A DNA stretch of 64,000 nt from Polyangiales bacterium (GCA_965227405.1 OZ245758.1:2932338-2996337), one strand, 5' to 3'; positions 2,468-40,635 are shown, counted from the first letter of the stretch. Numbers and translations are program-made. Notes: generated from the letters alone by a model not told the origin.

Positions 2468-2472
2468 ACGTC

Positions 2473-10002: not shown

Positions 10003-10005
10003 GCC

Positions 10006-11499
10006 GTGCTGCCCGAACGCATCGGCCGCTATGAGATCTGCGCCGAGGTTGCCTCGGGAGGCATGGCGACGGTCTACCTGGCTCGTCTCGTCGGTCCGGC
10101 AGGGTTCGACAAACTCGTTGCGCTCAAATGCGTGCACGCGCATCTCGCGAAGGATCGCCAGTTCATCGAGATGTTCTTGGACGAGGCACGCTTGGTGTCG
10201 CGCATTCGACACCCGCGGGTGTGCAGCGTCTTCGACGTCGGCTTTGTCGACGGCCAGTACTACCTCGCGATGGACTTCCTGGAGGGCGTGTCTGTTGCGC
10301 AACTCTGCCAGCGCCTCACCGAAGGAGGACTTCCGGTTGCGCAGCGTTGTTTGCTCGCGTCGCGACTGACCGCGCAGGCCTCCGAAGGACTGCACGCTGC
10401 GCACGAATTGCTCGACGAGACTTCGCAGCCACTGCAGGTCGTGCACCGCGACGTGTCACCCCAAAACCTCTTCGTGACCTGGGATGGAAACCTTCAGGTC
10501 GTGGACTTTGGTGTGGCGCATGCGACTGGCCGCATGCATCAGACCTTGTCGAGTGCCCTCAAAGGCAAGCTCGCGTACATGAGCCCCGAGCAGCTCAACG
10601 ACGAGCACGTCGATCGTCGCACCGATGTGTGGGCGCTGGGTGTCGTGCTCTGGGAGACGCTGACGCTGCGGCGCTTGTTTCGAAAGCGCACCGAGCCGGG
10701 AACGATGCATGCTGTTCTCGAAGGTCCGATTCCGGCGCCTTCGAGTGTCTCCCCAGGCGTGCCGCCCGAACTGGACCGCGTAGTGTTGCGGGCGCTCGAG
10801 CGCGACGTCGACAAGCGTTACCCCACCGCGCGTGCACTCGCGAAAGATCTCAACCGCTTTGCCAGTTCATGGGGCGTACCCATGGGCGAGAGTGAGATCG
10901 CTGAACTGCTCGAAGAGTTGATGCCGATCGAGCGGCAGCACAGCCAGCAACTGGTGTCGGGTGTGCGCGACCGACCACGTGCCGATCTCACACCAGCGAG
11001 TCCGACGTTACCCGGCAAGCCGCGTTCGCCGGTGTTGATCGCGTTGCTTACCGGCATGCTCGGAGCCGGGTTGGTGTTCGGGGTGTGGATGCTGCAGTCC
11101 GGCAATGAAGCGTCCGAGCAGCCTGTGGCGACGTCATCTCCACCGACTGTCGACGCGGACTTGGATGCGAGTGCGTCGACTGCTGTCATCGATGCGTCGC
11201 CTGTAGATGAGGTCGATGCTGAGGCCGAAACTGAATCCGAACCCGAGACGCTCGAGACAACGGAGATGATGGTGGCCGCGATGCGTGGGCCACAACGAAT
11301 CGGCGAGCTCAGCGTGTTCACGCCAAACCGACCGCCTCTACACGTGAGGATTCGTGGACGTGACTACGGCGAAACTCCGGTCACCATGATTCGGCTTCGG
11401 GTCGGACGTCATCGTGTCGAGCTACTCGAAAATGGGCGCGTGGTGGAGAGACGCCAAGTCGACGTCACCTTGAGAGGCTCGCGTCTGATCGTTCGCTAA
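10006..11499 (+). CDS. Ser/Thr protein kinase with TM segment and C-terminal PEGA-like domain
   Basis: Kinase motifs GGMATVY, ALKCV, HRDVSPQNLFV, DFGVA and SPEQ. A TM helix (VLIALLTGMLGAGLVFGVWML). A C-terminal beta-rich RIRGRDYGETPVTMIRLRVGRHRVELLENG segment typical of PEGA domains. Confidence 0.85.
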   Translation: MLPERIGRYEICAEVASGGMATVYLARLVGPAGFDKLVALKCVHAHLAKDRQFIEMFLDEARLVSRIRHPRVCSVFDVGFVDGQYYLAMDFLEGVSVAQLCQRLTEGGLPVAQRCLLASRLTAQASEGLHAAHELLDETSQPLQVVHRDVSPQNLFVTWDGNLQVVDFGVAHATGRMHQTLSSALKGKLAYMSPEQLNDEHVDRRTDVWALGVVLWETLTLRRLFRKRTEPGTMHAVLEGPIPAPSSVSPGVPPELDRVVLRALERDVDKRYPTARALAKDLNRFASSWGVPMGESEIAELLEELMPIERQHSQQLVSGVRDRPRADLTPASPTLPGKPRSPVLIALLTGMLGAGLVFGVWMLQSGNEASEQPVATSSPPTVDADLDASASTAVIDASPVDEVDAEAETESEPETLETTEMMVAAMRGPQRIGELSVFTPNRPPLHVRIRGRDYGETPVTMIRLRVGRHRVELLENGRVVERRQVDVTLRGSRLIVR

Positions 11500-18955: not shown

Positions 18956-19762
18956 CTAGCGCATCGTCGCTGCAGGGGTCTGCCGCCACGAAAACGTGAG
19001 CGGCACGACGACGGTCGTACTGACCCGCGCCGGAAATCGCCACCGACGCGTCGCTTCAAGCACACACACGGCCGTTTGCGTCGACTGTTCACTCGTCGAC
19101 TCAACTACGTTCCCTGCGCGGATCACGATCTTCACGTCGATGTCTTCCTGCGTCCGACGAGCGAAACACTCCTGAAGCTCACGACGTTGACGACGCACCA
19201 CTCGACGCACCGTGGACGCACGGGCTCCGCGAATCGTTCCAACCTCGACGTGGGTCGAGTGCGTTCCGTGAAGTCGTTCAAGTGTCCGACTGAATTGATT
19301 CGCCAACTCGCTCTGTCGGACTTGGTCGGGGTCGAACCCGAATTCGTTTGGCCCATTTGGTCCAAGCCGTTCGCCGCGAGGGCCTCGCAGTTCGCCCACG
19401 GTTTGGTGCTCAAGATTCGGAGGAGGTGAGGCTATGTGAACCTGCAGTCTTCCAGAACCTGAAGGCAGCTCGATGGAAGCAAGAACCTCGCGGATGCACT
19501 GGGTCTGCGTGCGTCGCGATACGTCCGGAACCGTTCGCTGCAACACGACGTCACTGACCCGTCCGTCCCGAAACACTGCGCGAAAGCGCCACGTAGCATC
19601 CAAGCTACCCACGCAGTCGCGAACACGAGTTCGGAGAGCAGGAATTCGCTGCCGCATCGATGGGGTGTCCAACGAACTCGACATCGAGATCGTGATATCG
19701 ATTGGTTGCTGAGCACGAGCACTGACACTCAGCAGAAGACCGAGTGTTGCGAGAGATCGCAT
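18956..19762 (-). CDS. secreted protein with two internally repeated Cys-containing domains
   Basis: Signal peptide MRSLATLGLLLSVSARAQQP. Two similar roughly 90-aa modules, each starting with a Cys (VRDCVGSLD... and LQECFARRT...) and ending in a V.LE/LASIELP-like strand. They resemble a TonB-C-like mixed alpha/beta fold. Confidence 0.45.
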   Translation of the reverse strand: MRSLATLGLLLSVSARAQQPIDITISMSSSLDTPSMRQRIPALRTRVRDCVGSLDATWRFRAVFRDGRVSDVVLQRTVPDVSRRTQTQCIREVLASIELPSGSGRLQVHIASPPPNLEHQTVGELRGPRGERLGPNGPNEFGFDPDQVRQSELANQFSRTLERLHGTHSTHVEVGTIRGARASTVRRVVRRQRRELQECFARRTQEDIDVKIVIRAGNVVESTSEQSTQTAVCVLEATRRWRFPARVSTTVVVPLTFSWRQTPAATMR

Positions 19763-19820
19763 CGCCGGTGAACGCAGCAGCACCAGAATTGGTACGCCAA
19801 GGAGAGGTGGCTACTTCCTC

Positions 19821-20516
19821 TCAGAAACGCACCCGCACTCCACTCGCATCCAACGCAACATCGTCATCGTCGTCACCGCCCACAAGCAACCAGATCACTC
19901 CCGTGACTGCCGTTGCCGCTGCAATCCCGATCATCACGTCCGTCGAGATCGTCAGCCGATCCAACCGGTTCAGATCATCGCGCCGATCCGGTCCGCAGTC
20001 GCCCATTGGACACGCGTCATCCAGGTCGCCTCGTTGGGATAGCGCAAGTCCTCCGGTGATCGCTGCAGCAATCGCACTCGCTCCACCCACCGCAATCAGT
20101 GTGATCGCTCCAATGTTCGCGCTGCTCTCCGGCTCAACTGGAACCGCGACCTGCACAGGATCTTCCTCCGGCTCGTCTGCAGCCGCAGCAGCAATCTGCT
20201 CTTCCAACACGCCAATCCGCGACTCGGTGTAGTCACGGTTCTGCGCGTCTGGCGTGGCTTCGAGGTAGTCCCGGTAGTAGCGCAGCGCGTCTTCGGCATG
20301 GCCAAGACGATCGTGCGCGGTCGCGATGTTGTAGAGCAGTTCACTTCGCGGCGCGAGTTCGTAGGCGCGCGCAAAGCGGTCGAGTGCAACAGCGAACTGC
20401 CCTCGAGAGAACGCGGCCGAGCCTTCTTCGAACGCCTCACGGGCTTCGGCAATTCGATCCTGCGCATGCGCCATCGACGCACTCAAACAACACACCAAGA
20501 GCACAACGCGCATCAC
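19821..20516 (-). CDS. signal peptide / TPR-like / C-terminal TM protein
   Basis: Signal peptide MMRVVLLVCCLSASMAHA. One clear TPR-like helix pair (FSRGQFAVALDRFARAYELAPRSELLYNIATAHDRLGHAEDALRYYRDYLE). An acidic linker. A C-terminal TM helix (VMIGIAAATAVTGVIWLLV). Its GTG start overlaps the stop of the upstream RCC1 gene in GTGA. Confidence 0.6.
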   Translation of the reverse strand: MMRVVLLVCCLSASMAHAQDRIAEAREAFEEGSAAFSRGQFAVALDRFARAYELAPRSELLYNIATAHDRLGHAEDALRYYRDYLEATPDAQNRDYTESRIGVLEEQIAAAAADEPEEDPVQVAVPVEPESSANIGAITLIAVGGASAIAAAITGGLALSQRGDLDDACPMGDCGPDRRDDLNRLDRLTISTDVMIGIAAATAVTGVIWLLVGGDDDDDVALDASGVRVRF

Positions 20517-23500
20517 AACCCCCTTACCAGTTCAGGAGTCGGCCGCCGAAGGGGTGCTCCGGTTCCGCATGCTCCGTTCCAACACGCACCCCAACACACA
20601 GCCGTTCGATCCGAACGAATCGCACACGTGGTTTGCGTATCGAACCCGCCGCTACCCATTTCGGCGGCGTCGTCGATGCCCAACACCTGCATCGGCGTCC
20701 GGGTGTCGTCCGTGGTGCCGTTGCCCAACTCGTAGTTCGTGTTGCGACCCCAGCACCACACGCTTCCATCTGCGCGCACAGCACATGAGTGCGCGCTGTA
20801 CGTGCCCACGCTCACCGCATCGGCCAACCCGGGAACGGCGGACGGCGCGGTCGGTCCAGCGGTTCCCGGGTTACCGACTTGGCCTGAGCCGTTGCTGCCC
20901 CAGCAGATAACCTGGCCCTGACCTGCGATCCCTCCCTCTTGAATCGCGCACGCGTGAACGTGACCTGCGCTGATCGCGATCGCGTTGTCCACACCCGGTA
21001 CATCCATCGGTGTTGTGGAGTCAGTCGGAGCATCGGCACCGAGTTGCAAGGAACTGTTCTCGCCCCAACAGCTCACTTGTCCTGTGCTCCGAAGCACACA
21101 CGCAAACGCAGATCCCACGGCGAGCTCTGTTGCGTTGTCGACCGACACGACGGCTTCACCCGGCGTCAGGTCCATACTCGGCGTTGCGCTGCCTCGTCCG
21201 AGTTGTCCGCTAGCGTTCGATCCCCAGCAGTAGATTTCGGTGCCTTGGCGTGCACAGCCGTGGTTGTCGCCGAGTCCAACGTCGTCTTCGCTGCCCGTAA
21301 GATCAACGAGAACGGGTGTCGACAACGTCCCGGTCGTGCCGTTGCCGAGTCGCCCCGAGTTGTTTCCGCCAAATCCGTACGCTTGTCCCAGTCCCACCAA
21401 CACGGTTGCGCGATTCACCGCATGGACACGCGTGGCACCGGTTCCAAGCGCTCCTGGTACTGCAGACGAGACCGTACGTACGCCGGTTCCTGTTTGGCCT
21501 TCGTCTGCGCGACCCCAGCAATACGCTGTCCCGTCTGCACCAGCACACGCGTGAATAAACCCGGCGCTGATCGAACTAACGTTGCTCAGCCCCATCACCG
21601 GAAGGTCGGGTTGTGTGCGGACGATGGTCGCTTCGCGTCCGAGTTGGCCGTGTTTGTTGTCGCCCCAACACCACAACCGTCCGTTGTCGATGGCACATGT
21701 GTGGAGAAAGAGCGCGAAGAGTTGCGCGCTACTCGGAACACCCACAGGTGCAACAGGTGTGGCCGTGGACGGCGTGAGCATGCCGTCGCCGAGTTCACCG
21801 AAACTGCGATTGCCCCAACAACGCGCGTTGCCGTCGACCGTTGCACACGTGTGTCCGCTTCCGGCGCTCAGTTGGGTCACATCGGAGATCGCGTCGATGC
21901 GCGTGGGCGAACGCATCCCGTCCAAAGGAACCAATCCCAGCTGGTTGAAGGTGTTCGCGCCCCAGCAATAGAGCACACCGGCCGTTGTTGCTGCGCACGT
22001 GTGACTGTTGCCTGCAGCGATCGTTGCCACATCGCTGAGTCCGACATCAACGGCGGAGAGTGCCGGGTCGATCGTCCCGTCTCCGACAGTGCCGTTTGTG
22101 TTGGTTCCCCAGCAACGCATGGTGCCGTCAACCAATCTTGCGCAGCCGCCTGACCCCGCGACGGCAATCTCCGCGACATCTACGTCCAACCCAGCGACAC
22201 GCGCAGGAGTGGCTTGCGTGAGGTTGCCGGTTGTTCCGATTCCGAGCTGTCCAAAGTCGTTGCGCCCCCAACACCACACCCGCTGCGCATCGTCGAGCGC
22301 GCACGTAATCCACTGCTTGGCTTCGATCTGCGTGAACGTGCGCGCGTTGAATGCTGCGTCGCCGACCGATTCGACAGGCACGTTTGAGATCGAGATGGGG
22401 TTCGCGAGCACACCATAGGTGCCGCTTCCCCAACACCAAATTTCACCGTCGACGTCGATGGCGCACGTGTGTTGAAACCCGACAGCGACGTCACGAACGA
22501 GTAACGGCATCGCGGTGTCCGGGTTGAGAACCAAGTTTGGGTTGGGTCGTGCAGTGTTGGTGCCGTCGCCCATCTCACCGCGCCAGTTGATGCCCCAACA
22601 CTCGAGTCGCCCAGATTCCCGAACGGCACACGTGTGGTCGACGTATCCATCGACGTTGATGATCGGATCGCAGAACCCGTCGAGGCAGGTGTCGGCGCAG
22701 ACCGCTCCGCATGCGCCGCAGTGGTCGGCCGTGTTCAGATCTTGCTCGCATCCGTCCATGGGGTCGTCGTTGCAATCCGCAAAACCTGGGTCGCAGGAGA
22801 CGATTTCGCAGCTGCCGGTGCAGGTCCACGTCGCGTTGCCGCCGGTACACGGCTGGTCGCACGCCCCACAGTGTTCGAGGCTGCTCGTCGTATCGGTTTC
22901 ACACCCTGCGTCGTCGGTGCAGTCACCAAACCCGGATTCGCACTCCAGTCCGCACATGCCGGCTTCGCACGTGGGTGTGGAACGCGGTGCAGTCGGACAC
23001 GCGTCGCAACCGCCGCAATGAAGTGGATCGGTCTGCGTATCGACGCAGCTTCCTTCACAGAGCTCCGCTGTGTCTGGACAGCTCTCAACACAGGTGAAGG
23101 GTTCGGTCCGCGCATCACACACCGGCGTGGCCGCGTCGCAAGTGTTGAAACAGTCGCCGCAGGTCGCGGGGCTGTCCAAGCGCGCTTCGCATCCGTCATC
23201 AAGGATGCCGTTGCAGTCGTTGAAGCCCATCTGACAGGTGTCGATCTGACAGTCGCCGCTTACACAACTCTCGCTCGCACTCGGAACATCACACCGGTCC
23301 ATGCACGCACCGCAGTGATCCAGAGAGGAGTCCGTGTCGGCTTCGCAGCCGGTATCAAATCGCGTGTCGCAATCGGCGAACGTGCCTTCGCACGAGACGA
23401 TCGCGCACACGCCGTCACTGCACTCGCCTTCGCCGTTGGCGACGACACATTCATCGTCGGTCATGCACTCGATGGGGATCGCGTCGGTCCCCGCGTCATC

Positions 23501-23581
23501 CACGACTCGAAAGTCGCCAGAACCTGCAACCAAGGTGCACCCCAGAAGGGGCACCAAACCGACCGAAACCCAAGCGCGCAC
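20513..23581 (-). CDS. secreted lipoprotein: N-terminal Cys-rich repeats plus C-terminal RCC1 (regulator of chromosome condensation) beta-propeller repeats
   Basis: About 1020 aa. The N-terminal third has repeated CxxCxD...DxxTDxxHCGxC units. The C-terminal two-thirds have at least 7 RCC1 repeats (HTCA....CWG.N..GQLG). I moved the start to the GTG at 23581, giving MRAWVSVGLVPLLGC, a lipoprotein signal. Confidence 0.8.
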   Translation of the reverse strand: MRAWVSVGLVPLLGCTLVAGSGDFRVVDDAGTDAIPIECMTDDECVVANGEGECSDGVCAIVSCEGTFADCDTRFDTGCEADTDSSLDHCGACMDRCDVPSASESCVSGDCQIDTCQMGFNDCNGILDDGCEARLDSPATCGDCFNTCDAATPVCDARTEPFTCVESCPDTAELCEGSCVDTQTDPLHCGGCDACPTAPRSTPTCEAGMCGLECESGFGDCTDDAGCETDTTSSLEHCGACDQPCTGGNATWTCTGSCEIVSCDPGFADCNDDPMDGCEQDLNTADHCGACGAVCADTCLDGFCDPIINVDGYVDHTCAVRESGRLECWGINWRGEMGDGTNTARPNPNLVLNPDTAMPLLVRDVAVGFQHTCAIDVDGEIWCWGSGTYGVLANPISISNVPVESVGDAAFNARTFTQIEAKQWITCALDDAQRVWCWGRNDFGQLGIGTTGNLTQATPARVAGLDVDVAEIAVAGSGGCARLVDGTMRCWGTNTNGTVGDGTIDPALSAVDVGLSDVATIAAGNSHTCAATTAGVLYCWGANTFNQLGLVPLDGMRSPTRIDAISDVTQLSAGSGHTCATVDGNARCWGNRSFGELGDGMLTPSTATPVAPVGVPSSAQLFALFLHTCAIDNGRLWCWGDNKHGQLGREATIVRTQPDLPVMGLSNVSSISAGFIHACAGADGTAYCWGRADEGQTGTGVRTVSSAVPGALGTGATRVHAVNRATVLVGLGQAYGFGGNNSGRLGNGTTGTLSTPVLVDLTGSEDDVGLGDNHGCARQGTEIYCWGSNASGQLGRGSATPSMDLTPGEAVVSVDNATELAVGSAFACVLRSTGQVSCWGENSSLQLGADAPTDSTTPMDVPGVDNAIAISAGHVHACAIQEGGIAGQGQVICWGSNGSGQVGNPGTAGPTAPSAVPGLADAVSVGTYSAHSCAVRADGSVWCWGRNTNYELGNGTTDDTRTPMQVLGIDDAAEMGSGGFDTQTTCAIRSDRTAVCWGACWNGACGTGAPLRRPTPELVRGL

Positions 23582-23623
23582 GATTTCGACGATAGGTGGG
23601 GGATCCGGCAATAACCGGTGGTT

Positions 23624-23662
23624 TCGATGTCGAATCGATGTCGAAACTGGGTCGACATCGAC
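23624..23662. promoter_or_regulatory. operator-like repeat cluster: tandem TCGATGTCGAA x2 plus inverted copy TCGACATCGA
   Basis: Read directly from the sequence. Two contiguous 11-bp direct repeats (23624-23645) and an inverted copy (23652-23662), 6 bp apart. They lie in the 91-bp divergent intergenic region between the RCC1 lipoprotein gene and the AAA/HTH regulator gene. Confidence 0.4.
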
Positions 23663-23672
23663 GTACCGTACG

Positions 23673-25694
23673 GTGGTGAAGGCCAGGGTCCACGAGCTGC
23701 ATCCCCCCGAGAGCTTGGGGGATCTCGTCGACCGCGAAGCCCAACAGCGCTTTGTTGGACGTGAGCAGGAACTCGCGACGCTTCAGGCGCACCTTCGCGA
23801 CGCGGAGACATCGCCACGGGTGGTCACGCTGGTGGGTGCTGCCGGGACCGGCAAGACAACCATCGCATCAAACCTGCGCGCGCAGTGCGAGCGCGAGGGA
23901 CGTCGAGTGCTGTGGGTGTCGGGCGAGGCGTCGTTGCCTGCGACGACACGAGCCACGTTGGCTGAGCAGGTTCCGCAGTTTGGACGAGGAACGACCGCCG
24001 ACTTGGTTGTTGTTGACGGCTTCGAACGGATCTCTGGCATTGCAGCGTGGTTCTTCCAAGAGCTCTTGCCGACTGCCGGCACGCGCCTCTTGGTGTTGAT
24101 CACCTCGCGTGAGCGACTTGGGGCGCGAATCCGCTCCAACATAGGGTTGCAGAAGTTGCTGCACGGTATGGAGCTCTCCGCGTTTGCGACGAACGAGGCG
24201 AAGCAACTACTCGATGCAGCCAACGTTCCCGAAGACGACCACGACACGATCATCCAGTTTACGGGCGGGCTCCCACTCGCGTTGGCGTTGGTGATCGAGA
24301 GCTACCAACTTGACGACGCGTATCGCTTCAACGTTACCGCGCCAGGCGAAGTGGTCGACGTGTTGATGCAAGAGCTACTGCGCGACGTGGACGACACGAG
24401 TTTGCGCGAGGCGATCGATGCGCTGTGCATCGTGCCCTACACCGACCAAGAGCTGCTGCAGCACATGCTGGGAGAGGAGCAGGGACTGGCGGCGTTTGCG
24501 GTGCTGCGGAAGCTGAGTTTTGTGCGTCAGGAAGACCAGCGTCTCAAACCGCACGATTGGGCACGTTCTGCGGCGTACAGTGACTTGTCGGCGCGACGTC
24601 CAAACGAACTGACGCGACTGGCTCAACGCGCGATTGCCCTGCTGGTTGACCGAGCGAGCACCGCGGAACCAGCACAGATGCGTGAACTGATTCTTCAGGC
24701 GTTGATGTCGCGGCGCGATCGCCCCGAGGTTCGTGCGCTGGGTCTGACGATCGTGGACGAGACCACGCTTCGTCGCGCCGAAGAAGTCGACGACCCCTTC
24801 ATCGAAGCTGCGATTGCGCAGTACGAATCCGAAGACGCGGTCGAAAGCTTTCGTCGCATGCGCCGCATGTACCCGGAAGGGTTCTTCGTGGTGTCTGACA
24901 TCGCCGGCAACGTGGTTGGGGTCATCGGCCATGTACCGGTGACCGATGATCCCGATCCCTTGATGCGTGTGACGTACGAGCTGGCCAAGGACCTGCCCGA
25001 GGAAGGGCACCATGGCGTGTCGGTCTTCCGTTGGTTCTTTGCGCTCGAGGGATATATGCAGCCCTCGCCTGCGATCGGTGCAGTGATGTTGAGTGGGCCG
25101 CTTGTGACGGCGAGCTCAACGCCGATCCCGCGCTACGCGTTCTTCATGGTTCCGCCGAGCTGGGGCGCGCAAGCACATCGAATGATGGTGACGCCGATCG
25201 TTCGAGAGCCAACTCAAGCTTTCGATCGTCCGTATGCGCCCTTTCTTCTGGACCTTGCTTCGTACGTGTCGGAGTGGACGCCGGCTGAGGTGATGAGTGC
25301 GTCGCTCAACACGATGGTGCAGCGCTTGCTCGAGCCGGTCGCAGGCTTGGATCGCGCGACGTTCGAAGCCGCAGTCAAAGACGCGATGGCAGCGCTGCAT
25401 CAACCCGCCGCACTCGAACGCACGGCTTTAGTTCGTGCGCGCTCCGTCTCTGAACCTCGCGATGCGGCAGCGATTGCCGCGTATCTTCGAAGCGGTGTGA
25501 ACGCGATGGCGGAGCGGCCACGGCAGTCGGATTGGGCGGATGTCCTGAACGCGACGTATGTTGAGCCGGCGGTGAAGCAACGCGCTGCAGCGACGGATCT
25601 CGGGATTCCGTTTGGGACGTACCGCTACCGGTTGAGGCGCGCACTCGCCACGTTGGCTGACGAGTTGTGGAGACTCGAGAGCAAAGCGCGCTAA
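23673..25694 (+). CDS. AAA+/STAND-type ATPase regulator with C-terminal sigma-70 region-4-like HTH
   Basis: P-loop FVGREQELATLQAHL...VVTLVGAAGTGKTTIA and a Walker B LVVVDGFE. The C-terminus LGIPFGTYRYRLRRALATLADEL resembles ECF sigma region 4.2 / LuxR-type HTH. The start is uncertain (GTG 23673); the upstream part of ORF 23334.. is antisense of the RCC1 gene. Confidence 0.55.
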   Translation: MVKARVHELHPPESLGDLVDREAQQRFVGREQELATLQAHLRDAETSPRVVTLVGAAGTGKTTIASNLRAQCEREGRRVLWVSGEASLPATTRATLAEQVPQFGRGTTADLVVVDGFERISGIAAWFFQELLPTAGTRLLVLITSRERLGARIRSNIGLQKLLHGMELSAFATNEAKQLLDAANVPEDDHDTIIQFTGGLPLALALVIESYQLDDAYRFNVTAPGEVVDVLMQELLRDVDDTSLREAIDALCIVPYTDQELLQHMLGEEQGLAAFAVLRKLSFVRQEDQRLKPHDWARSAAYSDLSARRPNELTRLAQRAIALLVDRASTAEPAQMRELILQALMSRRDRPEVRALGLTIVDETTLRRAEEVDDPFIEAAIAQYESEDAVESFRRMRRMYPEGFFVVSDIAGNVVGVIGHVPVTDDPDPLMRVTYELAKDLPEEGHHGVSVFRWFFALEGYMQPSPAIGAVMLSGPLVTASSTPIPRYAFFMVPPSWGAQAHRMMVTPIVREPTQAFDRPYAPFLLDLASYVSEWTPAEVMSASLNTMVQRLLEPVAGLDRATFEAAVKDAMAALHQPAALERTALVRARSVSEPRDAAAIAAYLRSGVNAMAERPRQSDWADVLNATYVEPAVKQRAAATDLGIPFGTYRYRLRRALATLADELWRLESKAR

Positions 25695-26459
25695 CGGTAC
25701 GGACCGTCGTTGAGCGGCGTCGTCGTAGATCCCTTCCACGTCTGCTTTGCGCTTCTTGCGTAAATGCTTGCGCGCGGTTTTGTAGAAGCTTCTGGGATTG
25801 CGCGTGAGTGCCTTCACGATGGCTTTGTCCGGCGTGTCCGCAAGCGTTGCGGCAAGTGCCAGCGCGTAAGAGAGATCCAACTCGGACAGTGCACCACGCC
25901 GCGAAAAGCCCCAGCCCGCCATGAGTCCATCGCTGGTCTGGTGAAACTGAAACGCTGTGTTCGCGAGAAACACTCCGAACCCAAGCAGGACAGCACCGAG
26001 ATCGACAAAGTACTCGCGGTCTTCTTCCTCACCCGGATACGGAGTTGCGGCTGACGTCACCATGTAGTGACTCATGCCGCGCGCGATCGTGGCGACAAGG
26101 TCAACCGGATCGTCGAGTTGAGCGGGGTCGTAGGGGATCGGAAACGGGTCGCCCTGAGCAATGGTTGTGCTCGATGTCTCGCTTGTGACAGGACCCGTCA
26201 ACGGGTGAGACATGCCCTTCAACACGTCGGCAACGTTGGGTGTCTGATGCAAGCTCATCACAAAGGGCCACTGCGTCAGACCGGTGTGTTTCATCGCAGT
26301 GTTGAGCAACGCGGATGCGCGAGCATGCGCATCCAACGACATGTCGACCGGAAAATCCTCCGGCGATGGGAAGAGCGTTCGACCCACGTTGGTGAAGTTC
26401 TCTAGCCACCAACGTGTCGCATCGAAAATCCAATCGATCGTTTCGTCGTCTGGCTTCAC
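25428..26459 (-). CDS. hypothetical protein (343 aa), Arg-rich C-terminal tail
   Basis: The N-terminal 250 aa look protein-like. The last roughly 90 codons are Arg-rich and overlap the 3' end of the convergent regulator gene by 267 nt, so either a genuine long overlap, a disordered tail, or a frame error is possible. Confidence 0.4.
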   Translation of the reverse strand: MKPDDETIDWIFDATRWWLENFTNVGRTLFPSPEDFPVDMSLDAHARASALLNTAMKHTGLTQWPFVMSLHQTPNVADVLKGMSHPLTGPVTSETSSTTIAQGDPFPIPYDPAQLDDPVDLVATIARGMSHYMVTSAATPYPGEEEDREYFVDLGAVLLGFGVFLANTAFQFHQTSDGLMAGWGFSRRGALSELDLSYALALAATLADTPDKAIVKALTRNPRSFYKTARKHLRKKRKADVEGIYDDAAQRRSVPLARFALESPQLVSQRGECAPQPVAVRPKRNPEIRRCSALLHRRLNIRRVQDIRPIRLPWPLRHRVHTASKIRGNRCRIARFRDGARTN

Positions 26460-26494
26460 ACAAGACAGCTAGCACGCTGCGGTAGTCTGCGGCC

Positions 26495-27724
26495 ATGACA
26501 CGGTTTGCACTCTTGGTGTTGGTCGCTTGCGGAGGTTCTCAGTCGCCAAGTTCGACGCCGGCAAGCACTCCGCAGCCTTCGTGCTCCGATCCCGCGATCG
26601 AGCTTTCGTTTGCATGGCCTGAAGACTTGATGGCGCGCGTTTACTCGGTCGAACGAACCGCGAGTCAGAACTCGGATGGCTCGCGTCCGATGGAAGGAGC
26701 TTCGGAAGCAGACTACGCGCTGCGGATTGAGCGGGACGCGAGTGCAACGCGTGTTCGGTTCGAGGCTGGCGACCGCGAGCGTCTTCGCAGCAACGGTCTT
26801 ATTCCGACGATCGGCGAAGCGCGCACGGTGGTGCACCTTGATGCTCGTGGAAAAGTCACTCGTGTCGATGGGGCTGCCTCGATGCGCGATCAACTCGCCG
26901 CGATGGTGCAGCGGCAACAGCTTACGCAAGAGCAGGCGGACGGGATTGTGCGGCCACTTGGCGACGCGGAACAACTCGTCAACGCGAGCGCGGCGTGGGG
27001 AAACCTGGTGTCCACGTGGCATCAACGTCGTTTTCAGTGCGGAGAAACGCAGACCGCGCGCATCACGACATCGGCGTTTTTCGCGGCGCCGATGCAAGAG
27101 GTCGATATGGATGTATCGCTGCAGTACGTGGGTGCAGTCGACTGCCCATCCACGCGTGAGGAAGGGGTTCGGTGTGTACATCTTCGATTGGAAGGAGAGA
27201 CCGAACCACAGTCGCTTCGCGCTGCGCGAGCGCGTCACTATCAGGGTGGAACCGAACCGCGACAGGCAAGGGTGCGTCGCGCTGTGGATCTGATTGTTGA
27301 GCCTGAAGGGCTGATTCCGCACGAAGTCACCATTGAAGAACTCTCCGAACTGGGTTGGCGTGGTGACATGGGCATCGGTCGCGAGATCTACGATGCAAGC
27401 CAGTACCGGTTTCGATATGGGCCGCAAACAACCCGCATCTTGATGAGCACCGATGGTGCCGGATTTGCGGTGATCGACGAGAGTGGTCGACCTGCACAAC
27501 GACCCGATACTCCCGAATGTCGTGCGTTGACCGCGTGCTGCAGTGCGGCGGGCACCGCAGAGCATCCGGGCGCGATCAACCTGATGTGCGCCATTTCGAT
27601 GACCCCTGCGCAAAGCGAGGGAGAAGAGAACCCATTGCCGCCCTGTGTCGCGGAACTCACCGCGGTGCACGGCGCGCTCGTCGCACAAGGCGCAACCATT
27701 CCCGAAGGGTGTTCGGTTCCCTAG
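26495..27724 (+). CDS. putative lipoprotein (409 aa)
   Basis: MTRFALLVLVACGGSQSP lipobox. Globular composition, several Cys near the C-terminus. The overlapping 538-aa minus-strand ORF is Arg-rich antisense. Confidence 0.55.
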   Translation: MTRFALLVLVACGGSQSPSSTPASTPQPSCSDPAIELSFAWPEDLMARVYSVERTASQNSDGSRPMEGASEADYALRIERDASATRVRFEAGDRERLRSNGLIPTIGEARTVVHLDARGKVTRVDGAASMRDQLAAMVQRQQLTQEQADGIVRPLGDAEQLVNASAAWGNLVSTWHQRRFQCGETQTARITTSAFFAAPMQEVDMDVSLQYVGAVDCPSTREEGVRCVHLRLEGETEPQSLRAARARHYQGGTEPRQARVRRAVDLIVEPEGLIPHEVTIEELSELGWRGDMGIGREIYDASQYRFRYGPQTTRILMSTDGAGFAVIDESGRPAQRPDTPECRALTACCSAAGTAEHPGAINLMCAISMTPAQSEGEENPLPPCVAELTAVHGALVAQGATIPEGCSVP

Positions 27725-27729
27725 ATGGC

Positions 27730-29889
27730 CTAGGCGCGTGCCACCGTGACGGGCACTCCGTTGATCGCCGCCGTGCCCGTCAGTCGATCGAAGTACTCGC
27801 CATCGGTCAGGTCGTTCAGGCTCACCCCGGCGTGCTGCTCTGCGACTCGCAGTCGCGTGCCCTTGCCGTGATGTCCAAACCCGTGGGGAAGACTGACCAC
27901 GCCTTGCATCACTTCGTCGGTGACTTCTGCGCTCACCTCCACCGAACCCACCCGTGAGGTGATCCGCACTTTGTCGCCCTGTTGGATGTCGCGTTCTTCG
28001 GCATCGTCGGGATGGATCATCAACGTGCAGCGATCGCGACCCTTCATGAGCATGGGTACGTTGTGCATCCATGAGTTGTTGGAACGAATATGCCGTCGCC
28101 CAATCAGCCGAAGCGTTTCTTCGACGGACTCACGGTCTTCCAAGCGCTGCAGGTCGTCGACGAAGACCTCAGGCGCGAGCTGAATCTTGGGGTGCTCCTT
28201 GGGAAGCTTCTCCGGCATCGAAGGCATCATCGGACCGAGGTCCAAACCGTGCGGATACTCCTGTACCACCTTGAGCGTCAGTTTGCCGGGCTGACCACCA
28301 AAGGGCTTCCAACCGGCGAAGCCCTTACCGTACGGACCCGCGCGTAAACCAAGGTCGAGCAAACGACGCGGTCCTGCAGCTTCGAGTGCACGCGCCTGCA
28401 ACGCGCCTTGGCTGAGTGGTCCGTGCCGAAGGGATTCGATGCGGCGCATCAGCCCGAGCAAGATCTCCCAATCGTGTTTTGCACCCGCGGGTTTCGGAAA
28501 CACGGCCTTGGAGAACTTGGTGGTGTTGCGAACGGCCACCGCGTGAAAGATCAAATCGTAGTGATCGCGCTCGAGTGGACTGACCGGAGGCAAGATGATG
28601 TGAGCGTGCTTGGTCGTCTCGTTCAGGAACGGGTCGATGCACACCATGAACTCGAGTTCGGGCAACGCGCGATCCAGAGCGGCTCCGTCGGGCGTCGACA
28701 ACACCGGGTTGCCCGCCATGGTCACCAGTCCGCGAATCTGACCTTCGCCCGGTGTACTGATCTCTTCGGCAATGCAGCTCGCCGGTAGTTCGCCACCAAA
28801 CTCGGGCAGCCCACGGACGCGACTCGTCCAGCGACCGAAACTTCCTCGACCCAAACCGAAACCACCACCTGCACCGATGACGTCGACCGCCGGTGTCGGA
28901 AACATCACTCCACCGGGACGATCAAAGTGACCGGTGATCAGGTTCAGGACGTGAATCAACCACGCCACCAGGCCACCAAACTCTTGGGTGCAGGCACCCA
29001 CGCGTCCATAGACGGCTGCACGCGGTGTGTCGGCAAGCTCACGGGCAATACGCCGAATGGTGTCGGCTTCCACGCCGCTGATCGTCGCTGCTCGTTCTGG
29101 CGTAAAGCTCTTGGTCGCGGCAACCAACTCGTCGAGGCCTTCGCAGTAGGGCGCCAGTCGACCCAGGTCGAGCTTCTCGTGGGCCGCGATAGTTTGCACC
29201 ATCGCCAACAAGACGAACGCGTCTGTCCCGGGACGAACAAACACATGCTCGTCCGCCACGCGCGCGGTTTCCGTGCGACGCGGGTCCATGACGACCACGC
29301 GACCGCGCTCACTGATCTCGCGTAGACGTCGTCGGATGTCCGGAGCGGTCATGATGCTGCCGTTACTGGCCAGCGGGTTTGCGCCCAACATGAAGAAGAA
29401 GTCGGTGCGATCGAGATCTGGAATCGGGAAGAAGAGTTGATGCCCGAACATCTGGTAGCTCGCGAACATATGCGGAAGTTGATCGACCGACGTCGCGCTA
29501 AACCGGTTCTTCGTCCGCAAGACTCGCAACAACATCGGACCGAAGAGCATCGAGCCGAGGTTGTGGGCGTTCGGGTTGCCCAGATACAGACCCACCGCAT
29601 CGCGACCGTGCGCGGTTTGGATCTGATGAAGACGCTCGCATGACTCGTCGAGAGCTTCGTCCCAGCCAATGGGTTCCCAGTTCGAACCGTTGCGACGCAT
29701 CGGATGACGCAAACGATCCGGGTCTTCGTACAGACTCTTAAGACCCACAGCTTTGGGACACACGTGCCCGCGACTCAGCGGATCGTGTTCATCACCGCGG
29801 ATGTCTTGAACCTCGCCTCGGTCGGTCTCGATCCGCAGTCCACACATGGCTTCACAGAGTGGACAGGTGGTGAAATGGGTCTCAGGCAT
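27730..29889 (-). CDS. molybdopterin (bis-MGD) oxidoreductase family protein
   Basis: N-terminal 4Fe-4S Mo/W-bisMGD motif TCPLCEAMCGL...GHVCPKA. Length 719 aa and C-terminal MopB-like segments. Confidence 0.8.
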   Translation of the reverse strand: MPETHFTTCPLCEAMCGLRIETDRGEVQDIRGDEHDPLSRGHVCPKAVGLKSLYEDPDRLRHPMRRNGSNWEPIGWDEALDESCERLHQIQTAHGRDAVGLYLGNPNAHNLGSMLFGPMLLRVLRTKNRFSATSVDQLPHMFASYQMFGHQLFFPIPDLDRTDFFFMLGANPLASNGSIMTAPDIRRRLREISERGRVVVMDPRRTETARVADEHVFVRPGTDAFVLLAMVQTIAAHEKLDLGRLAPYCEGLDELVAATKSFTPERAATISGVEADTIRRIARELADTPRAAVYGRVGACTQEFGGLVAWLIHVLNLITGHFDRPGGVMFPTPAVDVIGAGGGFGLGRGSFGRWTSRVRGLPEFGGELPASCIAEEISTPGEGQIRGLVTMAGNPVLSTPDGAALDRALPELEFMVCIDPFLNETTKHAHIILPPVSPLERDHYDLIFHAVAVRNTTKFSKAVFPKPAGAKHDWEILLGLMRRIESLRHGPLSQGALQARALEAAGPRRLLDLGLRAGPYGKGFAGWKPFGGQPGKLTLKVVQEYPHGLDLGPMMPSMPEKLPKEHPKIQLAPEVFVDDLQRLEDRESVEETLRLIGRRHIRSNNSWMHNVPMLMKGRDRCTLMIHPDDAEERDIQQGDKVRITSRVGSVEVSAEVTDEVMQGVVSLPHGFGHHGKGTRLRVAEQHAGVSLNDLTDGEYFDRLTGTAAINGVPVTVARA

Positions 29890-29918
29890 GGGCGCAGAAT
29901 GCCGAAATCACCGAGAAA

Positions 29919-30572
29919 GTGCACGATGCACAGATCCAGGGATACACTGGAAGGGTGAGATCCTTGCTTGTGCTGGCAATGGCGCTCTCGCTGGGGGGAA
30001 CGGCGATGGCGCAGGAGGCTGTTCCGCAGCCGACCGACGACGGCGTTCCAGGTGCCGACGAGATTGGACGCGCAGAGTTTCTGCGTGGACGACGCGCCTA
30101 CGATTCGGGTGACTACGAAACTGCGCTCGACGCGTTTCAACGGGCGCTCGAGCTAACGTCACGACCTGCTCTTTACTACAACGTGGGTCTAGCACTTGAC
30201 CGTTTGCGTCGCGACGCTGACGCGCTTGCTGCGTACGAGCGCTACTTGGAGTTGGTCGAGGAATCCAACGAGCGACCGACAGTCGAAGCGCGCGTTCTAG
30301 CGTTGCGACGTGCACTCGAAGAGGACCAAGAGCGCTCCGCAGCGGCGGTTGCTGCGGCAGAGGCGGAACGCGAGCGCGCACTCCAAGAGGAGCGGGACCG
30401 TTTAATGGGCGCGAACCGAGCGAAACGTCGTCGCACAGGGCTCATCGTGGGGATCAGTTCAGCTGTTGTCGTGGGTGCTGTCGTGGCTGTGGTGATTATT
30501 GCGACCCGCGGAGGCAACAACCTAGAGCAGGGGGACTTCGGTCCCGCCAGCAGGGCTTTGGTGAGTTGGTGA
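29919..30572 (+). CDS. signal peptide / TPR-like / C-terminal TM protein
   Basis: Signal peptide (VRSLLVLAMALSLGGTAMAQEA). TPR-like YDSGDYETALDAFQRALELTSRPALYYNVGLALDRLRRDADALAAYERYLE, which is a paralogue pattern of 19821..20516. Coiled-coil/acidic linker. C-terminal TM GLIVGISSAVVVGAVVAVVII. Its stop overlaps the next gene's ATG in TGATG. Confidence 0.6.
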   Translation: MHDAQIQGYTGRVRSLLVLAMALSLGGTAMAQEAVPQPTDDGVPGADEIGRAEFLRGRRAYDSGDYETALDAFQRALELTSRPALYYNVGLALDRLRRDADALAAYERYLELVEESNERPTVEARVLALRRALEEDQERSAAAVAAAEAERERALQEERDRLMGANRAKRRRTGLIVGISSAVVVGAVVAVVIIATRGGNNLEQGDFGPASRALVSW

Positions 30573-33316
30573 TGCGAATCCGTGTGTTGAGTGTGCTCTT
30601 GGTTGCGGCGTTGGGATGCGGTGACGATCCCACCCAAATCATCGTGGAGATCTACGGAGCGGACGAAATCGTTCGCGACGTCACAGGTGTGCGTATTCGT
30701 GTTGAAGGCCGTGGCCGTGACGATGGCGACTTCAGCGACCCGCCGATCTACGTCACGGACAACGCTGTTCCTGCAGGCGCGTCGAACTTCCCGCTGACCC
30801 ACGTCATCGCGCCTTTGGACGGCGATGCGAACCGAATCTACCGCGTGACCGCACAAGGTTTGGTTTCGGACGCCACGGGCATCAGCGTGATTTCAGAAGC
30901 GCGAGCAATCTCCGGATTCATCAGGGGTGAAACCCGTGTGTTGAGGCTCTACTTGCCCGGGGGTCCGTGCCGGGATCGAACCTGTCCGGTCACACAGACC
31001 TGCGTGCAGGGTTCATGTGTCGACATCGTGGAGATCCCACCCGAACTTCTGCCTGGTCGAAATGGTGATCCCTTTGATGCCGGCGTGATGGACGTTGGTT
31101 TGGATACGATGGGCGACACGTGTGAGGGCGAAGGCGAGCCATGTGATCCCGAAGCGCTCTGCGAGACGGGCGTGACCATGTGTTCGGATGGCGAACCCGT
31201 TTGTGTGGGGACCGGTGAGGCACGTAGCGCAGGCACAGTGTGTCGCGCCGGCGACGGGGTGTGCGACGCCGAAGAGACCTGCGATGGCGAAAGCCTGGAG
31301 TGTCCTGTGGATGCACCTGTCGCGGATCTGACTCCATGTGGAGATGCCGGCGAGATCTGCGTTGGCGGTGTGTGCGATCTGTGCGACCCCAGTGCGCCCT
31401 GTTCGACAGGGAACGCCTGTGAGCGCGGTACACTGGTGTGCGAAGGCGAGCCAACCTGTGAGCCCAATGGTCCTGCAGACCCAGGCACGGTCTGTCGCCC
31501 TGCCGCCGGACTTTGTGATGCAGAGGAGTTCTGTGATGGAACGAGCCTCGCGTGCCCCGACGATGAGCTGAAAGTCGACGGTGCGATTTGCCGTGAAGCA
31601 GAGGGGCTCTGTGATGTGGCCGACGTCTGCGATGGGATGACCGTGAACTGTCCTGACGAGCTCGCGGATGCCACTGTGGAGTGCAACGCCTCGCAAGGCG
31701 TGTGCGATCCAGCAGAGATGTGTGACGGCGCGTCGAAGACGTGTCCCGCAGATGTGCTTTTGGGCAGCGACGATGTGTGTCGCCCCGGTACATCGGAGTG
31801 TGATGTTGATGAGACGTGCGACGGCATCAACGGCGCATGCCCAGAGGATGCGTTTGTCGACTTCGGTGGTTCGTGCGGGGCGGACGGCATGAACATTTGC
31901 GACGGGAGCGGCCGTTGCATTCCTCCCACGTGCGGAACTGAATGCAACACCGGACGCGCCTGCGAAGTCGGAATCGTGGACTGTCCAGAAGGCGAAGCGC
32001 CGCAATGCATTCCGGACCGGGTTCTAGGCGCTGGGACTCCCTGTCGTGCTTCCGCAGGAGTGTGCGACGTCGCAGAAACCTGCGACGGAGTGAACGGTGC
32101 GTGTCCCCCGGATTTGTTCGAGCCGGCTACGACCGTTTGTAACGCTGCGGTGGGTGCTTGCGATGTCGCGGAAACATGCACCGGGTCGGGACCAACTTGC
32201 CCGACCGATGCGGTGCAACCGTCAACGCATACCTGTCGACCAGCTGCAGGTGGGTGTGACGTTGCAGAGACTTGTAACGGCATGGACAAAGGGTGTCCTG
32301 CAGATGACCTGGCGACAGGAATCTGCCGACCTCCGCGTGGACCCTGCGACGTCGCTGAGGCATGCGATGGCGTGTCTGTCGACTGTCCAGACGATGTGTT
32401 GCGTGAAGACGGAGCCATTTGTCGTGCAGCCGGTGGTCTTTGTGACATCGAAGAGGTCTGCGACGGAGCCAATCCAACCTGCCCCACCAACGAGTTCGAC
32501 TCGGGCTCACTTTGCCGCGGTGCCGTCGACGACTGCGATGTCGACGAGTTCTGCTCGGGAAGCGCAGCGACCTGTCCCACCGATCAGTTTGAGCCTGCAG
32601 GGTTCGTCTGCCTCGAGTCGAGCGGGTTCGACTGTGAAGCCGATGCGGTGTGCAGTGGCACGGACCCCTTCTGTCCCGTTGGCGATGCAACGTGCTTCGA
32701 TCTCGTGATCAGCGAGGTGCTTCCTGAGGACACGATCACCAGTGGCCGGCAGGGCTTCGTCGAGATCTACAACACCAGCGATGACCCTTTGCTTTTGGAA
32801 GAGTGCGTTCTTCTCAACAGCGCAGGAGGCGTGACTCCTCTCGACAGCGGTGGGGTCGAAGGAGACGGCGGCATCCCGCCCCACGGGTTCTTCTTGGTGA
32901 GTTACGGCACTGCGGCGGCGACCGCGGACATCAATACGAACCAACCACACCCCGGCAACTTCGGTGGTGAGGTTGTCCTCGATTGTGAAACTTTCGCAAT
33001 CGATGCCTGTGCGTGGGCCCCCGGTGTGGGTATGGACGGTGGGATGTCGCTGGATGGTGGTGACACGATGGATGCCGGTGGCATCGGTGACGTTCTCGAA
33101 GGGCCGCCCGCAACGAACCCACCACGTGGTTTCTCGCTCGAACGGAAAGCATGCTTCGACTCAGATGAAGCGAGCATGCGTGGCGCCGGACGCGACGCGA
33201 CCTCCGGTAACTCCGAAGACACCGACGTCAACGAGGACGACTTCCTCAATCGGATGTCACCGCAGCCGCAGTCCTCGTCGAGTCCGCCTGAGACGCCAGC
33301 GATCTGTCCGTTCTAG
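30572..33316 (+). CDS. lipoprotein with about 16 Myxococcus-type cysteine-rich repeats and C-terminal lamin-tail domain (LTD)
   Basis: MRIRVLSVLLVAALGCGDD lipobox. Repeats of C(R/N)xxxGxCDxxExCDGxxxxCPxD match the myxobacterial disulfide-repeat family. The C-terminus VISEVLPE...GFVEIYNTSDDPLLLEECVLLN matches the LTD signature. Confidence 0.8.
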   Translation: MRIRVLSVLLVAALGCGDDPTQIIVEIYGADEIVRDVTGVRIRVEGRGRDDGDFSDPPIYVTDNAVPAGASNFPLTHVIAPLDGDANRIYRVTAQGLVSDATGISVISEARAISGFIRGETRVLRLYLPGGPCRDRTCPVTQTCVQGSCVDIVEIPPELLPGRNGDPFDAGVMDVGLDTMGDTCEGEGEPCDPEALCETGVTMCSDGEPVCVGTGEARSAGTVCRAGDGVCDAEETCDGESLECPVDAPVADLTPCGDAGEICVGGVCDLCDPSAPCSTGNACERGTLVCEGEPTCEPNGPADPGTVCRPAAGLCDAEEFCDGTSLACPDDELKVDGAICREAEGLCDVADVCDGMTVNCPDELADATVECNASQGVCDPAEMCDGASKTCPADVLLGSDDVCRPGTSECDVDETCDGINGACPEDAFVDFGGSCGADGMNICDGSGRCIPPTCGTECNTGRACEVGIVDCPEGEAPQCIPDRVLGAGTPCRASAGVCDVAETCDGVNGACPPDLFEPATTVCNAAVGACDVAETCTGSGPTCPTDAVQPSTHTCRPAAGGCDVAETCNGMDKGCPADDLATGICRPPRGPCDVAEACDGVSVDCPDDVLREDGAICRAAGGLCDIEEVCDGANPTCPTNEFDSGSLCRGAVDDCDVDEFCSGSAATCPTDQFEPAGFVCLESSGFDCEADAVCSGTDPFCPVGDATCFDLVISEVLPEDTITSGRQGFVEIYNTSDDPLLLEECVLLNSAGGVTPLDSGGVEGDGGIPPHGFFLVSYGTAAATADINTNQPHPGNFGGEVVLDCETFAIDACAWAPGVGMDGGMSLDGGDTMDAGGIGDVLEGPPATNPPRGFSLERKACFDSDEASMRGAGRDATSGNSEDTDVNEDDFLNRMSPQPQSSSSPPETPAICPF

Positions 33317-40209: not shown

Positions 40210-40635
40210 CTAAGGACAGGCGCGGTTGCAGGCGAAGACGCCGCCGCCGCAGTCTCGCGTGTCTCCGCACGCCGCCATGTTGCACTCGCCCGTCCCGTCG
40301 CAGCGCAGAACGCACTCGCCGGCGCCGCACGCGAGTTGGCAGTTGGCGTCTCCGGAACACGCGAGCTCGCAGCTAGCGTTGCGTCGGCAGCGCACGTTGG
40401 TCTGAGTCTGATCGGTGGCGGTGATCGCGCATGCCGAGCCAGCAACACACTCCGTGACACAACGATCGCCCTGACACTCGTAGTTGCACGTGCAGCCCGC
40501 TGCACACTGACAATCACCCACACAGATTGCCGTGCAGAAACAGCCGTCAGGACAATCCTCGGTCAGGTCGGGATCGACGACGACGAAGCAACCCGCGCCG
40601 AAGAGCAAAACGAAACCGAAGACAAGACGAAGCAC
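40210..40635 (-). CDS. small Cys-rich lipoprotein (141 aa, about 30 Cys)
   Basis: MLRLVFGFVLLFGAGCF lipobox, then a dense CxxxC / CxC pattern. Immediately downstream of, and co-oriented with, the Omp85 gene (4-bp gap). Confidence 0.55.
   Translation of the reverse strand: MLRLVFGFVLLFGAGCFVVVDPDLTEDCPDGCFCTAICVGDCQCAAGCTCNYECQGDRCVTECVAGSACAITATDQTQTNVRCRRNASCELACSGDANCQLACGAGECVLRCDGTGECNMAACGDTRDCGGGVFACNRACP

Follow-up and report, generated by a model that had tools for sequence, protein, structure and literature searches.

A two-gene module of Myxococcota pairing small tetratricopeptide repeat proteins with lipoproteins that bear a candidate recognition tag

We analysed a 64,000-nucleotide (nt) stretch (61% GC) of the genome of a Polyangiales bacterium (OZ245758.1; hereafter the window, to which all coordinates refer unless another locus is named), in which two loci each combine a gene for a small tetratricopeptide repeat (TPR) protein, here called A (19821–20513) and B (29919–30572), with a gene for a large lipoprotein. 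Both loci are copies of a two-gene module that is widespread in Myxococcota, mostly in Polyangia, and comparison of the sequences strongly supports a recurring cassette whose small TPR protein appears to be a dedicated partner of the neighbouring lipoprotein. Such a partnership is suggested by the pairing across many genomes and metagenomes, by a swap of the gene order, by tandem cassettes, and by the co-variation between the type of the small protein and the N-terminus of its lipoprotein. An earlier note on this DNA knew of no described system with this pairing, and we likewise found none in Pfam, NCBIfam, PDB or the literature, the last of which also yielded no description of the peptide tag or of the C-terminal module discussed below. 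As far as could be established, the conserved gene module with its candidate recognition tag is thus new.

Recurrence of the cassette

All four open reading frames (ORFs) of the two pairs noticed earlier were found at their expected positions (table 1), overlapping in each pair, and both junctions read TGATG with a 1-nt overlap of stop and start codons. At the second locus, where this overlap had already been seen, the stop codon of B lies inside TGATG and the lipoprotein starts with the ATG at 30572. A GTGA overlap had been proposed for the first locus; the TGA of the lipoprotein gene lies there inside GTGATG, and A starts either at the ATG of this string or at its GTG, so that TGATG can be read while GTGA remains a possible reading. 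The sequence AAGGGGG is found immediately upstream of the start of A.

A sample of further members, blind to their neighbours, came from a search of a single genome for each species with a degenerate DNA pattern that encodes LLYNIA...DRL. The scan returned 67 stretches, about 47 of which are true members according to a family hidden Markov model (HMM); the others, roughly 20, are chance matches in other phyla, as expected for such a pattern, and were removed by the same HMM. The true members come nearly all from metagenome-assembled genomes (MAGs) of Myxococcota (Sandaracinaceae, Polyangiales and Nannocystaceae), with several members per MAG. When the pattern-selected members are taken together with loci retrieved by protein similarity and with the window, 56 members can be evaluated, and 50 of them have a coupled neighbour on the same strand at a spacing between -11 and +17 nt, most often -1 or -4; the neighbour of one further member lies at +43 nt. 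A lipobox is present in each of the 46 partners for which the contig includes the N-terminus, the other four partners being cut by contig ends. Lipoproteins make up roughly 8% of the long ORFs in the fetched loci, and even at a baseline of 16% the binomial probability of 50/56 is at most 2e-33. A second, independent sample, taken from metagenome contigs, has a coupled lipoprotein in 11 of 11 evaluable members. The view of the earlier note that the small protein is the dedicated partner in a recurring cassette is therefore well supported, coupling being more frequent than chance would give.

The partner gene usually lies downstream of the TPR gene, an upstream position being found mainly for partners of the RCC1 type. 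The family member P0003 has the gene for an RCC1 protein followed by the TPR gene with a 4-nt overlap. At P0002 (locus L002) the TPR gene is followed, again with a 4-nt overlap, by that for a 1051-amino-acid (aa) RCC1 lipoprotein, i.e. the order is swapped relative to the window, and the pair adjoins the same STAND NTPase gene (1321–3303 of L002) as the window pair. The locus of P0005 (L003; GCA_041156605.1) carries three tandem TPR-plus-lipoprotein cassettes at 1303–9990, with TPR proteins of 277, 263 and 303 aa and low-Cys lipoprotein partners of 464, 503 or 506 aa, which suggests local duplication of the whole unit. Other arrangements include P0008, paired with a 737-aa lipoprotein, and P0055, P0056 and P0059, each paired with a disintegrin-like lipoprotein of about 880 aa, a second cassette being adjacent in locus L007. 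Coupling to a lipoprotein extends to a divergent subfamily of low GC content (P0021); here the lipoprotein begins with CSLLVDD... and has a Peripla_BP_6 body.

The partner lipoproteins and their N-termini

Both large proteins of the window match the lipobox pattern [LVI][ASTVI][GAS]C, an assignment by pattern only and not by a dedicated predictor. The lipoprotein of cassette 1 is 1022 aa long when read from a plausible GTG start (N-terminus MRAWVSVGLVPLLGC), a TTG at 23611 being an alternative; its signal peptide and tag are followed by a Cys-rich region of about 300 aa and by RCC1 repeats with 13 CWG motifs. The RCC1 domain scores above its gathering threshold (247 bits in nine stretches), WD40_RLD reaches 414 bits (cut-off 150), and residues 93–220 score 57.6 bits against NF041328 (MXAN_6577-like cysteine-rich; cut-off 100). 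The lipoprotein of cassette 2 has 914 aa with 80 Cys (N-terminus MRIRVLSVLLVAALGC) and matches disintegrin-like Cys repeats (PF00200) above the gathering score, with 176.7 bits in ten stretches, a match that reflects the Cys pattern only; an ADAM-type context is not seen. The RCC1 and Cys-repeat features ascribed earlier to these two proteins are thus confirmed, whereas the lamin-tail domain amounts to a weak resemblance (PF00932, 20.2 bits against a gathering cut-off of 34.3), and the label ‘Myxo-Cys-repeat’ had to be dropped, since no NCBIfam family matches 30566–33316 at E ≤ 0.01.

Clustering of the partner bodies by BLAST, after removal of the first 70 residues, gave at least 15 unrelated clusters. 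The largest groups comprise 21 proteins of about 360 aa (the one that was scanned has a PPC-type domain), nine RCC1-type proteins and five proteins of the type paired with B in the window, and there are singletons with EGF or unknown domains. The Cys content of the partners ranges from 0.9% to 11.5%, and Cys-richness is therefore not their common denominator. The suggestion that the small proteins serve disulfide-rich cargo in particular is also contradicted by three very Cys-rich secreted proteins or lipoproteins in the window, all on the minus strand, at 56286–58148, 58209–58769 and 40210–40635 (17.7%, 12.4% and 17.7% Cys, respectively), at each of which we looked for a TPR partner and for the tag and found neither. 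The second of them has MopE metal-binding motifs and the other two are without a Pfam match.

What the partners share is instead located at the extreme N-terminus. In 34 partners of two-helix small proteins (the A type), the peptide directly following the lipidated Cys can be aligned without gaps, with the consensus C-[STF]-[LVI]-[VAI]-x3-4-[DH]-[LF]-x2-[LV]; this tag of 12–16 residues, which reads CTLVAGSGDFRVVDDAG in the window, is followed by a low-complexity linker rich in D, G and P. Its specificity was assessed with a position-specific scoring matrix over the 16 residues after the Cys, in a leave-one-out scheme and with other lipoproteins from the same loci and from the window as controls. 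A score above 5 was reached by 25/33 partners as against 1/39 other lipoproteins, i.e. the tag is nearly confined to TPR-coupled lipoproteins. Four further A-type partners start with a small Cys knot (C..PEG.F.C.S..CP). The partners of one-helix small proteins (the B type) all have, from the lipidated Cys onwards, a conserved N-terminal domain of some 120 aa (CGxDxTQIxVEI...), behind which the bodies are quite different. This class of N-terminus is found with seven of seven one-helix members and none of the 38 two-helix members (Fisher 2e-8), and the metagenome sample adds three more of three one-helix members. The residue at position +2 of the partners is S, F, T, A, G or another one, never Lys.

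Some related observations may be mentioned here. The possibility that the N-terminal domain of B-type partners is a PEGA domain supplied in trans was ruled out, as hhalign gave a probability of 0.5% and Pfam no hit. Locus L069 encodes, on the minus strand (reverse-complement positions 5167–7737), an 876-aa lipoprotein with the tag (CSILKNRDDFTLRDAD); the 263 nt that remain up to the locus end show no TPR gene, and the tag may be an orphan or belong to a cassette truncated at the locus edge.

Architecture of the small TPR proteins and known systems

A and B are 41% identical over 76 aa (E=1e-13), and in a six-frame search of the window each is the only match of the other, so on sequence grounds they are true paralogues, as had been proposed, with a similarity confined to the TPR part. 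Database searches returned 52 relatives of A and nine of B. In an alignment of 26 of these relatives, the common architecture is a signal peptide, two TPRs with the strongly conserved core ...AYxLSxRPxLLYNIAxxxDRL... (the Asn of LLYN being invariant), a linker, a helix, a loop, a second helix, an acidic run and a tail. The linker is variable and rich in A, E and P (median 38 aa, range 17–79); the interhelix loop of about 34 aa often contains CPxGxC, with many members lacking the Cys pair; and Phe is the last residue of the tail in 45 of the 64 members sampled. A shows all these features: a signal peptide (aa 1–17), TPRs (aa 19–108), an A/E/P-rich linker or stalk (aa 109–131), helix 1 (aa 132–158), a loop with CPMGDC (aa 159–192), helix 2 (aa 193–213) and an acidic tail ending in ...VRVRF. 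It has a cleavage site of the signal-peptidase I type (AHA-Q) and no lipobox. B represents a shortened subtype with one hydrophobic helix, no loop and a Trp-ending tail (...GDFGPAxxALVSW); its signal peptide is followed by TPRs (aa 49–113), a 58-residue helical stalk (aa 119–176), the hydrophobic helix (aa 173–196) and the tail ...GDFGPASRALVSW. The earlier assignment of one C-terminal transmembrane helix to each protein thus fits B, while A has two, forming a hairpin.

The TPR assignment is backed by Pfam scores above the cut-offs, namely TPR_2 in A (33.2 bits; cut-off 27), and TPR_2 (36.6), TPR_16 (32.8; cut-off 32.7) and TPR_1 (31.7; cut-off 27.8) in B. The AlphaFold2 model of A, built with the alignment of 26 relatives, has a mean predicted local distance difference test (pLDDT) value of 84, rising to 98 in the TPR domain; residues 131–166 and 174–211 are predicted to form a helical hairpin with CPMGDC at the turn, followed by a low-confidence C-terminal beta hairpin. 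In the model of B, the TPR domain (pLDDT 98), again with two repeats and a capping helix, leads into the single 58-residue helix, and the membrane helix is modelled with low confidence. Foldseek matched only the TPR part of the A model, the best matches being consensus TPRs (root-mean-square deviation 1.2–1.4 Å) and the peptide-binding TPR modules of SGT, Hop, Tom71 and FKBP38; the C-terminal module found no match in PDB or Pfam.

When 1.84 billion cluster representatives were searched with a profile, 5104 proteins were retrieved at E ≤ 1e-30. Among the best 150 matches, more than 100 are full-length proteins of 230–300 aa and the remainder are long multi-TPR proteins. An exact look-up of the A sequence found no record; P0213, a 230-aa family member, falls into the same 90% cluster as P0001. 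The same hairpin-plus-Phe module terminates the multi-TPR proteins P0063 (902 aa) and P0071 (647 aa) and is also carried by PEGA-containing relatives including P0019; it is apparently a general means of anchoring periplasmic TPR arrays. Another relative, P0206 (437 aa), has a PG_binding_1 domain. P0060 and P0207 adjoin Pkinase-PEGA genes, and P0019 is followed by an arginyl-tRNA synthetase gene. P0207 is AKF09783.1 of the cultured species Sandaracinus amylolyticus (L084, 6001–6768), with no adjacent lipoprotein gene; nothing in our analysis supports its UniRef name ‘Thiol-disulfide isomerase’.

In its logic, the system closest to the cassette is Slam, or the type 11 secretion system (T11SS; PMC5449769; PMC8406197), where a protein with periplasmic TPRs is encoded beside its lipoprotein cargo and acts in a cargo-specific manner. 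Slam was described in Proteobacteria, with 52% of Slam genes adjoining a lipobox gene and cargo being found via gene neighbourhood (PMC5449769); the small TPR family shows the same kind of adjacency at the frequencies given above (50/56 and 11/11). Slam is, however, an outer-membrane protein with a 14-stranded DUF560 barrel (PMC5449769), whereas A and B end in alpha-helical hydrophobic segments. Neither has a DUF560 hit, and we therefore rejected their identification as Slam/T11SS proteins. Furthermore, Slam cargo is reported to share an eight-stranded beta-barrel domain, whereas the partners of the small TPR proteins share the extreme N-terminus. Another similar protein is YfgM of the YfgM–PpiD pair, likewise a small inner-membrane protein with a periplasmic TPR domain that acts on newly exported proteins (PMC9643414). 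YfgM is anchored by an N-terminal helix, holds its TPRs near the membrane at the Sec translocon, acts generally and is not paired with a lipoprotein gene (PMC9643414), unlike A and B with their cleavable signal peptide, stalk and C-terminal anchor, neither of which has a TPR_21 hit; they are thus not YfgM proteins.

The tag itself may be compared with sorting signals of other lipoproteins. In Myxococcus xanthus, Lys at position +2 marks inner-membrane lipoproteins and Ala at +7 sends FibA to the matrix (PMC3222651), and Bacteroidota have an N-terminal lipoprotein export signal (PMC5080379). Such signals resemble the tag in being short conserved peptides after the Cys that differ between lipoprotein classes, but they comprise 1–5 residues and their readers are presumably general machinery (PMC3222651; PMC5080379), whereas the tag described here has 12–16 residues and its own co-encoded candidate reader.

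Several other TPR proteins were considered and dismissed. For BamD/YfiO, TIGR03302 scores 21.3 bits against a cut-off of 81.4, and A has no lipobox. CpoB/YbgF, a name given by NCBI to the homologue P0024, is soluble and periplasmic, with TPRs C-terminal to a coiled coil and a gene in the tol-pal operon; the NCBIfam hits include no YbgF model, and the small proteins have the opposite order of domains, a membrane anchor and no tol-pal genes in their vicinity. Class II type III secretion chaperones (SycD/LcrH), which are cytoplasmic, were rejected, as TIGR02552 scores 15.8 bits against a cut-off of 104.8 in B and a signal peptide is present. The TPR-PEGA and multi-TPR proteins of Myxococcota (P0019, P0014, P0063 and P0071) are homologous in the TPR unit, the hairpin and the tail ending in G-x-F, and differ in having a PEGA domain or many TPR units; they are likewise without a described function. 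In the LpoA/LpoB–PBP1A/1B, RcsF–IgaA and NlpE–CpxA pairs, outer-membrane lipoproteins reach inner-membrane partners through long linkers. The cassette would share with these pairs the logic of a meeting across the periplasm, with no sequence relationship; there, the inner-membrane protein is an enzyme or a signalling protein and has a clear output domain, and the genes are not known to form translationally coupled cassettes.

The surroundings of the cassettes in the window were also inspected. Downstream of A, at a distance of 37 nt, is a gene whose product has a signal peptide and an AgmX/PglI C-terminal-like (TonB-C-like) domain (table 1). This gene may be a third one of the first operon, co-transcribed with A; it probably lies outside the module, since it is not kept beside homologues. 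A STAND NTPase (AAA_16, nSTAND_NTPase5) gene at 23334–25694 on the plus strand divergently adjoins the RCC1/TPR cassette. A scan for promoters and terminators was uninformative. The protein encoded at 9178–10002 had been regarded as a third paralogue of A and B, which our comparisons do not bear out: BLASTP gives E ≥ 0.19, phmmer a self hit only and hhalign a probability of 1.5%, and no TPR match is above threshold. Its gene lies between those for a sigma-54 activator and a kinase, not beside a lipoprotein gene. It is part of a kinase/FHA-sigma54 activator/kinase module (6059–11499), its product having a signal peptide and a membrane helix, and a small Cys-rich lipoprotein with the lipobox VAGC is encoded upstream of it (7298–7837); this module is separate from the TPR/lipoprotein cassette.

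Table 1. Features of the two cassettes in the window and of the gene next to A.
Feature	Position	Strand	Remarks
Large lipoprotein, cassette 1	20513..23581	-	lipobox LLGC, N-terminal tag, Cys-rich region, RCC1 propeller repeats
Lipidated Cys and post-lipobox tag CTLVAGSGDFRVVDDAG	23489..23539	-	candidate recognition peptide common to A-type partners
Small protein A	19821..20513	-	230 aa from ATG 20513; GTG 20516 also possible
TPR domain of A	20190..20459	-	two repeats and capping helix, pLDDT 98
C-terminal helical hairpin of A	19875..20120	-	two hydrophobic helices, polar tip; no Pfam or PDB match
Small protein B	29919..30572	+	217 aa from GTG 29919; 29955 or 29970 likelier starts
Large lipoprotein, cassette 2	30572..33316	+	lipobox ALGC, conserved N-terminal domain, about 10 disintegrin-like Cys repeats
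N-terminal domain (about 120 aa) of cassette 2 lipoprotein	30617..30985	+	begins at lipidated Cys, CGDDPTQIIVEIYGADE
Signal-peptide protein with AgmX/PglI C-terminal-like (TonB-C-like) domain	18956..19783	-	37.3 bits, cut-off 40

Possible roles of the TPR protein

The most likely role of the small TPR protein is, in our opinion, that of a cargo-specific holding or sorting adaptor, to which we assign a probability of roughly 0.4. The product of the first gene would be exported by Sec and anchored in the inner membrane by its one or two C-terminal hydrophobic helices, with the small domain of two TPRs held on a stalk (the linker of 17–79 aa in the A type, one long helix in the B type). The second gene would provide a translationally coupled lipoprotein with an adhesin- or receptor-like binding body, probably not retained in the inner membrane, given that Lys never occurs at position +2. 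The TPR domain would bind the extreme N-terminus of its own co-translated lipoprotein, i.e. the tag next to the lipid anchor in the A type and the 120-aa domain starting at the Cys in the B type, and the adaptor would decide how and where the lipoprotein passes on after lipidation. We infer the periplasmic location of the TPR domain from the signal peptide; the inner-membrane anchoring, the direct binding and the functional outcome are likewise elements of the model. A sorting role is favoured because N-terminal positions adjacent to the lipid carry sorting information and because the cargo bodies look extracellular or adhesive. A more specific version, tentative at present, is a tag-directed lipoprotein route in which the tag or the 120-aa domain would be read by an inner-membrane TPR reader, one per cargo, that fixes the fate of the lipoprotein as retained, outer-membrane or surface-exposed.

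Several considerations weigh against such an adaptor. It is not obvious how a protein of the inner membrane could carry cargo through the outer membrane, and we found no third conserved component. Five of the 56 members have no lipoprotein neighbour, and the distant relatives of the PEGA type (P0019) and of the P0060/P0207 type are solo as well. Neighbouring genes in the fetched loci were called by home-made rules for directed ORFs and lipoboxes, making these calls heuristic. The topology is not secure, as KRRR precedes the B helix on its presumed periplasmic side. The one-to-one coupling points to a stoichiometric complex and not to a chaperone that acts catalytically, and a stalk of such length suits a tether no less than a factor at the inner-membrane surface. 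Indeed, the two proteins may form a permanent trans-periplasmic complex, in which the inner-membrane TPR protein would reach the outer membrane with its stalk and hold the N-terminus of the mature lipoprotein there, so as to tether or position an adhesin- or receptor-like partner; in its logic this would resemble LpoA/LpoB–PBP or Pal–TolA with the direction reversed. We regard this as the main rival of the adaptor, though less likely. The stalk between anchor and TPRs (a median of 38 A/E/P-rich residues, or the 58-residue helix in B), the position of the tag directly under the lipid anchor and hence at the membrane surface, the provision of one TPR paralogue per lipoprotein with translational coupling, suggesting 1:1 stoichiometry, and the absence of Lys at +2 of the partners (cf. 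PMC3222651) are all consistent with a tether, but the stalks may be too short for a periplasm of at least 25 nm, which the 58-residue helix would span for only about 8.5 nm, and no peptidoglycan-binding or motor component is conserved nearby.

It is unlikely that the two proteins are merely co-expressed without contact, with the tag serving as a general sorting or export signal for shared machinery and the TPR protein acting elsewhere in the pathway. Although N-terminal signals for general machinery exist in Bacteroidota (PMC5080379) and in the form of Ala at +7 in FibA (PMC3222651), and the tag-bearing lipoprotein of L069 has no TPR gene in the available DNA of its locus, the near-restriction of the tag to TPR-coupled lipoproteins (25/33 vs 1/39) and the perfect co-variation of anchor type and partner N-terminus argue otherwise, and a general pathway would not need a TPR paralogue of its own in each cassette. 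Improbable, too, is an envelope-sensing pair like RcsF–IgaA or NlpE–CpxA, with the lipoprotein reporting the state of the surface or envelope and the TPR-hairpin protein relaying it inward through the polar tip of the hairpin, which often carries CPxGxC. A two-Cys loop between the helices is conserved in many members and genes for Ser/Thr kinases or a STAND NTPase often lie nearby, but the loop comprises only about 34 aa without a known output domain, the Cys pair is missing in many members and the B type has no loop, while the kinase neighbours belong mainly to solo, unpaired relatives. Finally, the adjacency might reflect no functional link at all and stem from the duplication of a fortuitous pair in a lineage rich in both TPR proteins and lipoproteins, which are indeed abundant in Myxococcota (in the fetched loci, about 8% of the long ORFs encode lipoproteins). 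This explanation we regard as highly improbable: the pairing spans at least 15 unrelated partner families and a divergent subfamily, outlasts a swap of gene order, and mostly involves overlaps of 1 or 4 nt at a frequency far from the chance level (P ≤ 2e-33).

How lipoproteins are sorted beyond the Lol paradigm of E. coli is an open question, notably for those found at the surface or in the matrix of myxobacteria, among them gliding adhesins, kin-recognition cargo and matrix proteases. In this respect, the module offers thousands of clusters of candidate cargo-specific readers together with a defined peptide tag, and it leads to the prediction that swapping the tag or deleting the reader would move the cargo. 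If the two proteins instead form a tether, the cassette would connect the inner and the outer membrane in a novel way. It would also provide a first functional context for many myxobacterial proteins named only ‘tetratricopeptide repeat protein’ or ‘hypothetical lipoprotein’.

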